Shown here in pieces: positions 30,436-39,327 of a DNA stretch of 43,175 nucleotides. This stretch comes from Methanobacteriota archaeon (GTDB lineage Archaea > Thermoplasmatota > Poseidoniia > MGIII > CG-Epi1), in NCBI GenBank assembly GCA_016845825.1, contig JAERSJ010000155.1, positions 1 to 43,175 of the forward strand, written 5' to 3'. The number at the start of each line of letters is the position of its first letter. Position 1 is the stretch's first letter. Under the pieces are notes generated by a model. It did not search any database and had not been told where the DNA came from. It was given only the letters and a program-made list of their open reading frames with translations. Position numbers and translations under genes: made by a program.

Positions 30436-30723
30436 TTAATTTGCTTTTAGATTTAGAATATCTGATTTTCCACCATCTAAAATGGCTATGATAGAAACTG
30501 GGAAAGGCTTTCCACAAGCTGCACCCAAAACAGAGTTATTTCCGTTGAATGAATAAACCGGAGTTTCACCATCTTTAGCCTTAGCTACAGTTTCATCAGG
30601 ACAGTTTGACGATAAAATCACCAATTTTGCTGAACCTGAAGTTATTGCTTTAGTTGACTCATTTGCTCCTACAGACACTTTTCCAGTATCTATTGCAAGT
30701 CTAAGAGATTTGTTTAGATCCAT
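30436..30723 (-). CDS. rpl30e: 50S ribosomal protein L30e
   Basis: TGKV..G, LG.ACGKPF and G.SDI motifs; follows rpoA2. Confidence 0.96.
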   Translation of the reverse strand: MDLNKSLRLAIDTGKVSVGANESTKAITSGSAKLVILSSNCPDETVAKAKDGETPVYSFNGNNSVLGAACGKPFPVSIIAILDGGKSDILNLKAN

Positions 30724-35665
<4,942 letters not shown>

Positions 35666-35669
<4 letters not shown>

Positions 35670-38600
35670 GATAAATCCTCCAATCTTAATCTAGCAACGA
35701 TTCCAAGCGATTTCAATTCCTCTAGGAGCAATTTAAACGCATAGGACATAGAAACCGGATAAATGGAAGTATTATCTCCCATTGGAGAAGTTAGTACTCC
35801 TCTTCTATCCAAGTAACCAATGTGTCCGGATTGACTGTCTACGTATTGTACAGTTTTATCACTTTCATCAAGTAAACGATCTTTGATAACCATCGAAGCT
35901 CCATGAGCAATTAAACAATCACGTTCCATTTCTCCGAATCTCAATCCTCCCATTCTTGCACGACCTTCAGTAGGTTGTCTTGTTAGAAGCTGAACTGGTC
36001 CTCTTGATCTAGCATGCATTTTACCGGAAACCATATGGTGTAATTTTTGATAATAGATAACTCCAACAAAAATTTCAGCATCTATACGGCGACCTGTTTG
36101 ACCATCGTACAAAACTTCTCTTCCACTGTGTTTTAATCCATATTGTGACAATGCATCTCTCAAATCATTTTCTTTTTCACCAGAGAATGCACTACCGTCT
36201 ACAGCACGGCCTTCCATACTGCCTACTTTACCGCCTATCATTTCAAGAACGTGAGCAACAGTCATACGCGATGGAATAGCGTGAGGATTAATAATCAAAT
36301 CAGGAGTAATTCCGTCTTCAGTGAAAGGCATACCTTCAGGTGGAACCATGTGTCCAATAACTCCTTTCTGACCGTGTCTACTTGCAAATTTGTCTCCCAT
36401 CTCAGGAACACGCTGGTCCCTTACTCTAATTCTTGCAATTCTAGAACCGTTTTCAGTTTCAGAAAGCATAACCGAATCTACAGTACCTTTTTCACCATGT
36501 CTTACAGTCAGTGAAGATTCTCTAACTTTTTGAGGACTTAAGAAATCAGTAGGTTCAGCTAAAAATCTTGGAGGGCTAGTTTTACCAATCAAGACTTCTT
36601 TACCTTTCAAATCAATTTCAGGATAAATGAGTCCGTCTTCTTCAAGGTAGAAATAAGCTTCTTCAGAACGTGCACCGCGAACTTCAGGTCCTGGGATTAC
36701 AAATCGATCTTCCTGTCCACCAGGATATCTTCTTTCCTCAGACATATATGTTCTAACGAAAGTAGACCTTCCAGTTCCACGGTCTATTGAACCGCGGTTG
36801 AAAATCAAAGCATCTTCCATGTTATATCCATGATAAGACATAACAGCAACAACTAAATTTTGTCCAGCAGGCCTTGCTCTTAGAGTGTTATATTTCATGG
36901 CTTCAGTTTGAAGCATAGGTCTTTGTGCATAATGCAGTAAATGTCCTCTGGTATCAGGCCTTATTCTGTAATTTGCTTGACCCATACCTAAAGACTGTTT
37001 TGACATACCTGCACCCATTGTACATCTTGGAGCAGAATTGTGCTCAGGGAATGGAACATTAGACGTAGCAACTCCCAAAATAGTTAGTGGATCTACTTCC
37101 ATGTGTGTGTAGGAATGCGTCTTCTTTTTCTCGGTCAAATAATCTGTATTTAATGCAATTAGACAATTTTCTTCTTCTTCAGCATCGATATATTCAATGA
37201 CTCCCTTGTCTATCAAGTCTTCCCAGACTAATTTACCACTCTTTAAAGCTTCGATATCGCTATCTTTAATGGCTAATTTATTTCCTCTTTTTGTAATCAT
37301 CAACGGCCTTCTTATTCTACCAGGATCACTATTGATAATCACATCATTCAAAGAATCGTCATATCTTACATTAACGACATTGCTGATTAGGCCCTGTCTT
37401 CTTCTTTGAATCATTTCTTTTACAAGATCGGTAGGTGCTTTGTGAGCCCCAATCAAATCTCCATTAAAGTAAACTTTACCCCAAGCAGGCTTTGCTTTAT
37501 CTATGTCTTGAATATCTAAATTAGCAATGGAGTCCATTATGATTTGATTTGGCACATTCTCAGAAACATCAACCATTAATGCTAAATTTTTAACCAAACC
37601 ACAGTTTTGCCCCTCAGGAGTTTCGTTAGGACATAACCTACCAAATTGAGTAGGATGCAAATCACGAGCTTCGAAGTGAGGCTGAGATCTAGTTAATGGA
37701 GAAATAACTCTTCGCAAATGTGACAAAGTAGACATATTACATGTCCTATCTAACAACTGTGAAACACCTGCGCGTCCCCCGGTCCAGTTACCAGTCGCCA
37801 TTGCGTGCATAATTTTGTTTGTTAAAACATCTCTTCTTACTGCATGGTGAACTCTATTCTCTTTTCTTTTAGAGTACGAGCGTTCCATTTGGTATTTCAT
37901 GTCATTTAGTAAAGCTTGAAGCCCAGAACGGAATAATTCTTCCATTAAGTTCCCAGCTAATTTTAATCTTTTATTTGCGTAGTGATCTTTATCATCAGGT
38001 TTTCGATCTCCTACGTGTAATTCTAGAACTTCTCTCGACATACGTCCAAGGAAAACAGCCTTTTTCATTCTTGAGTCTTCTGTAGTACTCAAGTGAGGTA
38101 GTAAGGTGTTATCCAAGATGTAGTTAATTCTCTTCTTTCTGTATTCTTTAGATTGCCCTGCAGCAAATCTTCTTTCTAAATATTCCAATGCTTCTTGTGT
38201 AGTGTAAATTCCTTCTTCATTATGCACTTCCTCAATATTAGCTAAAATTAAATTTTGTAAATCTTTGTTATCTGTAATTGCAGCCATTATGTCATCTGCA
38301 GATTCCATTCCAAGCGCCATTAGTAAAATCGCAAGAGGTACTTGTCCAGATGCAACGGGAATTGACACAGACAGAATACCATCTTTCTTCTTTTCGACAA
38401 CTGTTAAAGCACGGAAACCTTCCCTTTGCGAGAAAACTTTTGCTAACTCAGTTTGTCTTTGGTATCTTTCCTCTTGTTCTACCATTACACGGTTAGGTGC
38501 TAAATCTTCAAGACATACAAGAACACGTTCGGTTCCATTTACAATAAAGTAACCGCCAGGATCCATAGGATCTTCAGATTTTGCCTTTAGTCCCTCACGA

Positions 38601-39085
38601 TACTCAGCATCGCTAGAACCTTCCCCAGTCAAAAAGTTTCTGTGAAGATTACAAAGAATAGATTTTACCATAACAGGCATATTTCCTATTTCTTCCTCTA
38701 CTTCTTCAATTTCTATTCCTTCTTCAACAATTGTAAAATTTAAGTAAATTGGAGCTGCGTACGTCATATTCCTTAGACGTGCCATCATAGGAATGGAGTC
38801 AGTTTGAGAACCATTTGCCTCGTATACCATAGGCCTTCCGATTCTTATTTTTCCTAGATTAACGATTACATCTAAGTCACCTAATTCTAGGCGTATTGCC
38901 CCTCTTAGTGATTCATCAGCACCCACAGAAATATTGTCAACAACTCTCTGCATCCATGGTGCTTGGTTTTTGTCGTGCGGTAAGAAATCGTTAAAAGAAC
39001 CCAATTGGTGATTTACTAATGCAGCACTTGGTCCGGAAACACTACGGCTATCAAAGAAACCTTTGATTAATGCACGGGAATTCAT
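35666..39085 (-). CDS. rpoB: RNA polymerase subunit Rpo2 (B), unsplit
   Basis: GGYFIVNG, ETPEG, GDKFASRHGQKG and GGLRFGEMERDC motifs. Confidence 0.99.
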
Positions 39086-39327
39086 TCTTCCACCACCAAT
39101 CGGTATGCGAGGTTACTGCCTGCACTTTCACTAAAACGATGAACTTCTACAACGTCATTTGGTTTAGCCTCTTCATCCAATGCTTTCAAAGCAGGATCTT
39201 TCAAAAGTATTTTAGGCAATTGATCTCTAGTAATATTCAAAGGACTTAGCTTTCCTTCAATTTCAGATTCCTTAAGCAAAATGTGCTTCGGTACGAGCTT
39301 GTTTAACCACAGTATGTTGTCGTTCAT
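39082..39327 (-). CDS. rpoH: RNA polymerase subunit Rpo5 (H)
   Basis: LVPKH, QLPKI...DP and YRLVV motifs. Confidence 0.95.
   Translation of the reverse strand: MNDNILWLNKLVPKHILLKESEIEGKLSPLNITRDQLPKILLKDPALKALDEEAKPNDVVEVHRFSESAGSNLAYRLVVEE

Follow-up and report, generated by a model that had tools for sequence, protein, structure and literature searches.

The window analysed here is a stretch of 43,175 nucleotides from contig JAERSJ010000155.1 (assembly GCA_016845825.1) of a Methanobacteriota archaeon of the Marine Group III (MGIII) family CG-Epi1. It carries on its minus strand rpo2, the gene for subunit Rpo2 (B) of the RNA polymerase (RNAP), and our subject is the zinc ribbon near the C-terminus of this subunit, in which none of the four zinc-binding cysteines is left. 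The gene is unsplit and runs as one uninterrupted frame of 1139 codons with no stops. Its product contains Rpb2 domains 1–7 in order, all over the Pfam cut-offs (PF04563, PF04561, PF04565, PF04566, PF04567, PF00562 and PF04560). When it was compared with the Protein Data Bank (PDB), five archaeal Rpo2 sequences matched best over the full length (E = 0, 1084–1233 bits), and Pol II Rpb2 ranked next (1.8e-225). The operon order rpoH-rpoB-rpoA'-rpoA''-rpl30e is canonical (Table 1). Judged by its sequence, the window gene is archaeal Rpo2, and it is the only one found in the bin (genome 89% complete). A second Rpo2-like open reading frame (ORF) of the bin, on contig C6, is 37% identical to the window Rpo2, keeps the four cysteines (Cys4) and is up to 72% identical to copies in giant-virus metagenome-assembled genomes (MAGs); this contig looks like mis-binned giant-virus DNA.

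Passages of Korkhin et al. 2009 (PMC2675907) on the Sulfolobus shibatae enzyme place the zinc of archaeal RNAP in the clamp head and clamp core of Rpo1N and, for Rpo2, "in the clamp". The canonical ribbon of archaeal Rpo2 and eukaryotic Rpb2 (2pmz_B, 2waq_B, 4qiw_B and 8cro-type chains; 1i3q_B) lies at the C-terminus of Rpb2_7. We aligned the last 107 residues of the window Rpo2 to solved Rpo2 chains (2pmz_B, 2waq_B, 7ok0-type, 4qiw_B and 8cro-type) with HMMER. The window protein shares with them this position, LLDESD (1071–1076) before the ribbon, MSYAFKLL (1113–1120) after it, a near-equal length, and GH and DRRG between the two knuckles. Unlike the canonical ribbon it has none of the four metal ligands. 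The pattern C-x2(4)-C...C-x2-C/H is replaced by D1083, S1086, S1100 and a deletion at position 4, where the solved chains have His (Sulfolobus-type) or Cys (Thermococcus/Pyrococcus). The whole protein contains eight cysteines, the last being C1057 in GEMERDC, with none beyond. An earlier reading of this DNA (the sequence-only reading) had flagged 35771–35845 on the minus strand (residues 1081–1105, translation YVDSQSGHIGYLDRRGVLTSPMGDN) as an Rpo2 ribbon without its four cysteines between conserved LLDESD and SYAFKLL. The Pfam and PDB matches bear out the identity of the protein, and the alignment agrees with both the loss at all four positions and the conservation of the flanks.

Table 1. Features of the rpo2 locus and of related zinc sites
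Feature	Position	Strand	Basis or remark
rpo2 (Rpo2/B), 1139 aa, unsplit	35666..39085	-	ORF; seven Rpb2 Pfam domains; archaeal Rpo2 PDB chains best
Cys-less clamp ribbon, aa 1080–1112 (QYVDSQSGHIGYLDRRGVLTSPMGDNTSIYPVS)	35750..35848	-	Alignment to solved archaeal Rpo2 chains
D1083 (GAC), zinc ligand 1 position	35837..35839	-	Alignment; invariant in 16-row family alignment
S1086 (TCC), zinc ligand 2 position	35828..35830	-	Alignment; Ser or Thr in every CG-Epi1 family member read
S1100 (TCT), zinc ligand 3 position	35786..35788	-	Alignment; invariant in family
M1102 (ATG), adjoins one-residue deletion of ligand position 4	35780..35782	-	HMMER gap opposite His of CPIHG
Rpo1N clamp-core zinc site, degraded: C61, S64, D71, H74 (Thermococcus/Pyrococcus: C,C,C,H)	35448..35489	-	Alignment
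Rpo1N clamp-head first knuckle, degraded: H101, S104 (reference TCRECGR)	35352..35372	-	Alignment
Rpo1N clamp-head second knuckle, kept: C152, C155 (SCPHCG)	35202..35219	-	Alignment
rpo5 (H), upstream of rpo2	39082..39327	-	Pfam Rpb5_C 2.3e-18
rpo1N (A'), 886 aa, directly 3' of rpo2	33009..35669	-	ORF and Pfam
rpo1C (A''), 761 aa, extra N-terminal region of ~300–370 aa	30724..33009	-	ORF and Pfam
L7Ae/L30e family match	30436–30723		Pfam
S27e and L44e, zinc-ribbon Cys lost	contig C36:6929–7329	-	Outside window

The Cys-less state is fixed in the MGIII CG-Epi1 family (f1) as far as we read it, with 36 of 36 genomes showing it (25 of genus g1, two of g13 and nine of g14). Two further g1 genomes, in which the Rpo2 C-terminus lies on separate small contigs, are outside this count. 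The family and its sister family (f2) make up one order of 45 species genomes. When the C-terminal region was used as a query, the 120 matches listed (protein clusters at 90% identity from ENA, JGI, NCBI, Tara and Logan) were all f1 clusters, and all 120 were Cys-less. Near-identical proteins carry the source label Candidatus Poseidoniales/Poseidoniia archaeon. Nine f1-type GenBank records are Cys-less as well, including MGIII-CG-Epi1-LRMED-003 (90% identical) and A2.5-MGIII-9 (78% identical). Two Marine Group II (MGII)-type bins hold a second, f1-type Cys-less Rpo2 C-terminus that is 95–97% identical to the window (L115, G082:C27; L116, G293:C220); these extra C-termini are probably cross-binned MGIII contigs.

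Among 16 loci compared, the ribbon is always 33 residues long. Against the window copy, its 33 codons differ within the genus by 15–20 synonymous and 1–3 non-synonymous changes, and between genera by 11–22 and 5–10, respectively. GAC and GAT alternate at D1083 and all four TCN codons occur at S1100, with both residues unchanged in 16 of 16 alignment rows. Across the three genera 17 of the 33 positions are invariant and three more nearly so. On this codon-level comparison the ribbon segment is held by purifying selection.

To place the loss, we compared f1 with its relatives. Both f2 genomes keep Cys4 (VCAECGH...RCVVC). In a maximum-likelihood tree calculated in quick search mode with the ribbon masked, f1 and f2 formed a clade with a Shimodaira–Hasegawa-like approximate likelihood ratio (SH-aLRT) of 99, and f1 was monophyletic with a support of 100. 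Because f2 retains Cys4 and groups with f1, this topology dates the ribbon loss to the f1 stem, after the split from f2.

A second complete loss was found in family f27. Six of its 17 genomes (g104, g124, g131 and one g127) have the Cys-less form VDAKSGFIG...RSLSSG, and the other 11 have VCDKCGHVA...RCTVCG; the flanks are typical of the family in both forms. Binning errors among close populations may blur which form belongs to which genome, not that both forms exist. In the masked tree f27 is a separate clade, in which a Cys-less row is sister to a Cys4 row (SH-aLRT 97). As in f1, Cys has given way to Asp and to Ser in f27, Ala after G-H/F has become Gly, and the Thr that precedes the knuckle has become Val. 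By tree position and residue changes, the f1 and f27 losses are independent and the pattern of replacement is convergent.

In the Marine Group II-type families (f3, f4 and f5), partial loss of the cysteines is the rule, judging from the genomes sampled. Of the four Cys, the first alone remains in all 17 f4 genomes (12 genera) and in the one f5 genome, with the sequence VCAQSGH...VSPIHG or ...VSPVLG. In f3, seven genomes of six genera have one or two Cys, and 10 genomes of seven genera retain C-x4-C...C-x2-C. The f3 Cys4 genera are nested in the masked tree among genera with a degenerate ribbon. This would mean either many parallel origins of the degenerate sequence or recombination of the rpo2 3' end together with the rpo1N start. 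De novo regain of Cys4 in f3 appears unlikely because C-x4-C is common elsewhere in the phylum. One f3 genome is a case of its own. L061 (G261, f3 g27) resembles f4 in its ribbon, in its Rpo1N clamp-core site and in its ZnuA-family gene, but the masked C-terminal half of its Rpo2 is sister to f3 g30 (SH-aLRT 95); this pattern could be due to recombination or to a chimeric bin.

We then surveyed 41 other Thermoplasmatota families, with one to ten genomes each. Four Cys are present in 38 of them; the others are f18 (C,C,C,H, with CPIHG as second knuckle), f21 (C,C,C,S) and f27 (mixed). The 78 named GenBank loci comprise 60 with four Cys, one with five, two with C,C,C,D, four unreadable by pattern, and 11 Cys-less ones, namely the nine of f1 and two of f27 type. 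A search of cluster representatives at 50% identity returned 150, of which 123 could be aligned. The near-archaeal representatives all retain the ligands, and the 12 without the four Cys are all distant and virus-like. Odd ligands occur in ribbons of other lineages. L095 (G345, f19) has an otherwise intact ribbon with a C-x-C first knuckle (VCKCGH), and two soil Thermoplasmatota MAGs (L208 and L245) have Asp as fourth ligand (RCPVDD).

These surveys bear on what the sequence-only reading had allowed for. An assembly error does not fit the same state in 36 of 36 f1 genomes and in all 120 clusters listed. A state already widespread in Thermoplasmatota, and so unremarkable, does not fit four Cys in 38 of 41 other families. 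The proposal of an independent loss within archaeal RNAP stands for the f1 stem. The loss is not unique, however, in view of the complete loss in f27 and the partial losses in the MGII-type families.

Zinc-site loss extends past Rpo2, since by alignment both Rpo1N clamp sites of the window are degraded too. The clamp head has H101, S104, C152 and C155 in place of the four Cys of the reference (Table 1 gives the clamp core). Both sites are intact in f2. The clamp-head site is intact in all MGII-type genomes read. Among the f3 genera read, only g27 lacks an intact clamp-core site; within f4 this site is intact in g16, g22 and g24. Its sequence is CPTDNCKYDESPGH in f4 g5, g6, g9 and g17–g21 as well as f3 g27, and f5 has CPTDNNKYDRSPGH, which is degraded further. 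In f27 the clamp core is intact in all genomes, and the clamp-head site is gone from three of the Cys-less ones (TDRATGR...VSPHSG). No lineage read, in a comparison that comes down to three lineages, has a degraded Rpo1N site together with an intact Rpo2 ribbon. For this reason the Rpo2 zinc seems to be the clamp zinc that is easiest to do without, at least in these three lineages.

Several other proteins of the genome retain Cys4, namely Rpo10 (contig C44), both copies of TFB, both ribbons of TFS, Spt4, L37ae and Rpo12, the last located by tblastn at C68:3005–3151. Two ribosomal proteins encoded outside the window have lost zinc-ribbon cysteines, and their ligand positions read S,S,D,T in S27e and S,A,C,T in L44e. 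Across 20 genomes, Cys-less S27e is confined to genus g1. The degraded form of L44e is found in g1 and g13 of f1 and in every f3, f4 and f5 genome sampled; the protein is intact in f1 g14, f2, f27 and four other families sampled. The degraded pattern ...YSP.A.KH...RCTETGKAH is common to f1 g1/g13 and all the MGII-type genomes sampled, which is either a striking convergence or a transfer. Given the retained Cys4 proteins and the lineage-limited losses in S27e and L44e, erosion of zinc sites is, on the genes surveyed, selective and ongoing and not a general loss of zinc use. Rpo3 (D; contig C37:3228–3515, plus strand) has three scattered Cys, no Cys cluster, and no zinc or iron-sulphur motif, which in a single genome is no sign of a loss.

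The explanation that we consider probable is that the ribbon of the window Rpo2 is zinc-free and structurally retained, and that it belongs to a series of losses of structural zinc sites that proceeds stepwise and differs between lineages. The two beta-hairpin knuckles would still fold, with Asp, Ser and Thr side chains capping the backbone amides of the knuckles (Asx/ST turns) where the thiolate–zinc cluster used to be. Three things would help the fold: Gly in place of Ala after GH, Val in place of Thr ahead of the knuckle, and packing on the Rpo1N clamp core. The Gly and Val changes would tune this packing. If the knuckles fold without zinc, the domain would still tie Rpo2 to the mobile clamp in a metal-free form.

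Re-ligation of the site is one alternative. D1083, H1088, D1093 and D1104, possibly with Ser hydroxyls or water, would then hold a metal. The first three are invariant in f1 and D1104 nearly so, ligand 1 is Asp in both independent Cys-less lineages, and exchange of Cys for His or Asp at ligand 4 is known elsewhere (CPIHG in f18 and Sulfolobus-type chains; RCPVDD in the two soil MAGs). However, H1088 and D1093 are just as conserved in Cys4 forms (CGHIAMLDRRG) and are therefore not new ligands. In addition, the Cys-less form of f27 has Phe where f1 has H1088, and f1 has no residue at ligand position 4, which makes an alternative metal site improbable; Ser and Thr are also, in general, poor zinc ligands. 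We give slightly less weight still to a dispensable, decaying loop that lost its defined structure once the zinc was gone and constraint relaxed. The ribbon does change faster than its flanks between genera (5–10 of 33 codons non-synonymous vs 3–6 of 55), and the confidence of its AlphaFold2 model is low, but the low values span the whole isolated 100-aa piece and not the ribbon alone. The constant length, the excess of synonymous over non-synonymous differences within the genus, the invariant positions across three genera and the arrival of two independent lineages at the same replacements all speak against decay.

It was also considered whether the ribbon is an artefact of assembly or binning, or belongs to a pseudogene or a foreign copy, while the organism's real Rpo2 has Cys4. 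Foreign contigs are indeed present in the bin (C6 has a giant-virus RPB2, and C82 another piece that resembles Rpb10). Nevertheless, the window gene lies on a 43-kb contig in a canonical operon and has an open frame, the bin search found no other archaeal Rpo2, and identical or near-identical copies recur in the 36 genomes and the 120 clusters listed, from several sources. Operon context, open frame and recurrence rule this reading out, and we leave it a vanishingly small chance.

A zinc-free, retained ribbon raises the question of a driver. Parts of Rinke et al. 2019 (PMC6461757) describe that MGII favours the photic zone, that most Poseidoniales encode a zinc transporter which the deep-water genera lack, that zinc uptake genes are interpreted as an adaptation to low free zinc at the surface, and that zinc is far scarcer at the surface and markedly higher at depth. 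Photic preference and scarcity of surface zinc make zinc economy plausible. The redox sensitivity of Cys4 sites in sunlit water is another candidate driver. It is conceivable, though we lean somewhat against it, that planktonic Poseidoniia lost these sites repeatedly because sunlit, zinc-poor surface water favours cells that need less zinc or have fewer oxidisable Cys4 sites. A more specific scheme is held a little more tentatively. MGII and epipelagic MGIII might have been stripped of zinc stepwise, in the RNAP first at the Rpo2 ribbon and then at the Rpo1N sites, and in the ribosome first at L44e and then at S27e, as an adaptation to zinc-poor, oxidising surface water, with the Asp-x2-Ser/Thr knuckle and Ala to Gly as a general recipe for a metal-free ribbon. 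If this is true, the CG-Epi1 enzyme would be the first cellular RNAP of archaeal-eukaryotic type with an essentially zinc-free clamp.

Several results weigh against a retained, zinc-free ribbon as one step of such a process. AlphaFold2 modelling of residues 1040–1139 with the 16-row family alignment gave a mean predicted local distance difference test (pLDDT) of 48 and a predicted template modelling score (pTM) of 0.33; this low-confidence model has strands at residues 1078–1082 and 1089–1093. Retention of the fold is suggested by conservation of the sequence. The order of losses was drawn from three lineages, and kin are not independent. Most zinc ribbons of the genome are intact, so there has been no general zinc purge. 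Habitat and depth of f1, f2 and f27 are indicated by record labels only. A census of the ZnuA family (PF01297, a family that is not zinc-specific) in 40 genomes did not track the state of the ribbon: matches were found in 0 of 4 f1 genomes, 8 of 12 f4 genomes (one Cys), 4 of 9 f3 Cys4 genomes and 0 of 6 f3 two-Cys genomes. The census therefore gives no direct support to zinc scarcity as the driver. ZnuA does co-occur with an altered clamp-core site, in nine of the 10 such genomes (one f4 sub-clade and f3 g27), which may be due to phylogeny alone.

Replacement of zinc-binding cysteines has precedents. According to portions of the literature, bacterial C-minus ribosomal proteins (L31, L33, L36, S14 and the mycobacterial alternatives) have likewise had their Cys replaced recurrently while staying in a large assembly; S27e and L44e of the window genome show the same kind of replacement. 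In contrast to those proteins, which the same portions describe as usually forming Zur-switched paralogue pairs under zinc limitation, a single-copy catalytic subunit of RNAP is changed here. Makarova et al. 2001 reportedly analysed the zinc ribbons of ribosomal proteins under the phrase "two C or not two C". Within multisubunit RNAP there is a precedent in Rpo3/RPB3, whose structural metal centre has been lost in some lineages. Sections of one article (PMC10881513) describe a zinc finger in eukaryotic RPB3, an iron-sulphur cluster in some archaeal Rpo3 and neither in the fusions of vaccinia and African swine fever virus (ASFV). That precedent concerns another subunit, an assembly platform, whereas the clamp is concerned here. 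Disrupted zinc ribbons are familiar from bacterial ribosomal proteins, and the metal centres of Rpo3/RPB3 are known to vary. A Cys-less clamp ribbon in an archaeal RNAP was not found reported in the literature covered, with subscription journals and bioRxiv supplements outside that coverage.

A likeness at the same place of the same subunit is seen in giant-virus RPB2 homologues, to which the 12 Cys-poor representatives of the 50%-identity search would belong. These differ from the window Rpo2 in being distant (34–38% identity), and their viral origin is suggested by the style of their sequences. Among RPB2 copies in giant-virus MAGs, one of the 56 readable ones has ICKKSG...NS. ASFV itself, according to the same sections of PMC10881513, retains the Rpb2 clamp zinc.

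The bacterial beta subunit is also a second-largest catalytic subunit; it has no zinc site of its own and still closes the clamp. In contrast to the window ribbon, the bacterial segment is shorter and aligned weakly (E. coli-type chains, E ~6e-6, with no stretch passing alone), and the Cys-less state of the window Rpo2 arose by secondary loss within a subunit of archaeal type.

The three clamp zinc sites have been treated as fixed in archaeal and eukaryotic RNAP and are assumed to hold small domains that lack a core. A natural, selectively maintained enzyme without the Rpo2 site and most of the Rpo1N ligands implies that the clamp has no intrinsic need of this zinc to function. This RNAP is carried by a globally abundant marine lineage, and with it RNAP joins the ribosomal proteins as a machine that microbes have remodelled at its zinc sites. 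Natural sets of substitutions (Cys to Asp, Cys to Ser/Thr, Ala to Gly and Thr to Val) are on offer, and f1 with f2, or the Cys-less with the Cys4 form of f27, are ready pairs for studying effects of trace metals or oxidative stress on core machinery.

Other observations concern Rpo1C and the foreign contigs. Rpo1C (A'') of the window, with 761 residues, is about twice the usual size, and its Rpb1_5 Pfam match begins at residue 307; the first 380 residues gave no Pfam match even at E = 1. The N-terminal extension, especially at 31900–33009 on the minus strand, contains repeats that look like helix-hairpin-helix motifs. The nearest protein-atlas clusters, which serve as leads only, are Thermoplasmatota Rpb1-domain-5 proteins of 508–661 residues (scores 0.79–0.88), and an extended Rpo1C may be common in the phylum. 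Contig C6, with the RPB2-like ORF, is 5098 b long. On C82 (2586 b) lies another Rpb10 fragment, of eukaryote- or virus-like character, and by the look of it this contig is mis-binned giant-virus DNA too.

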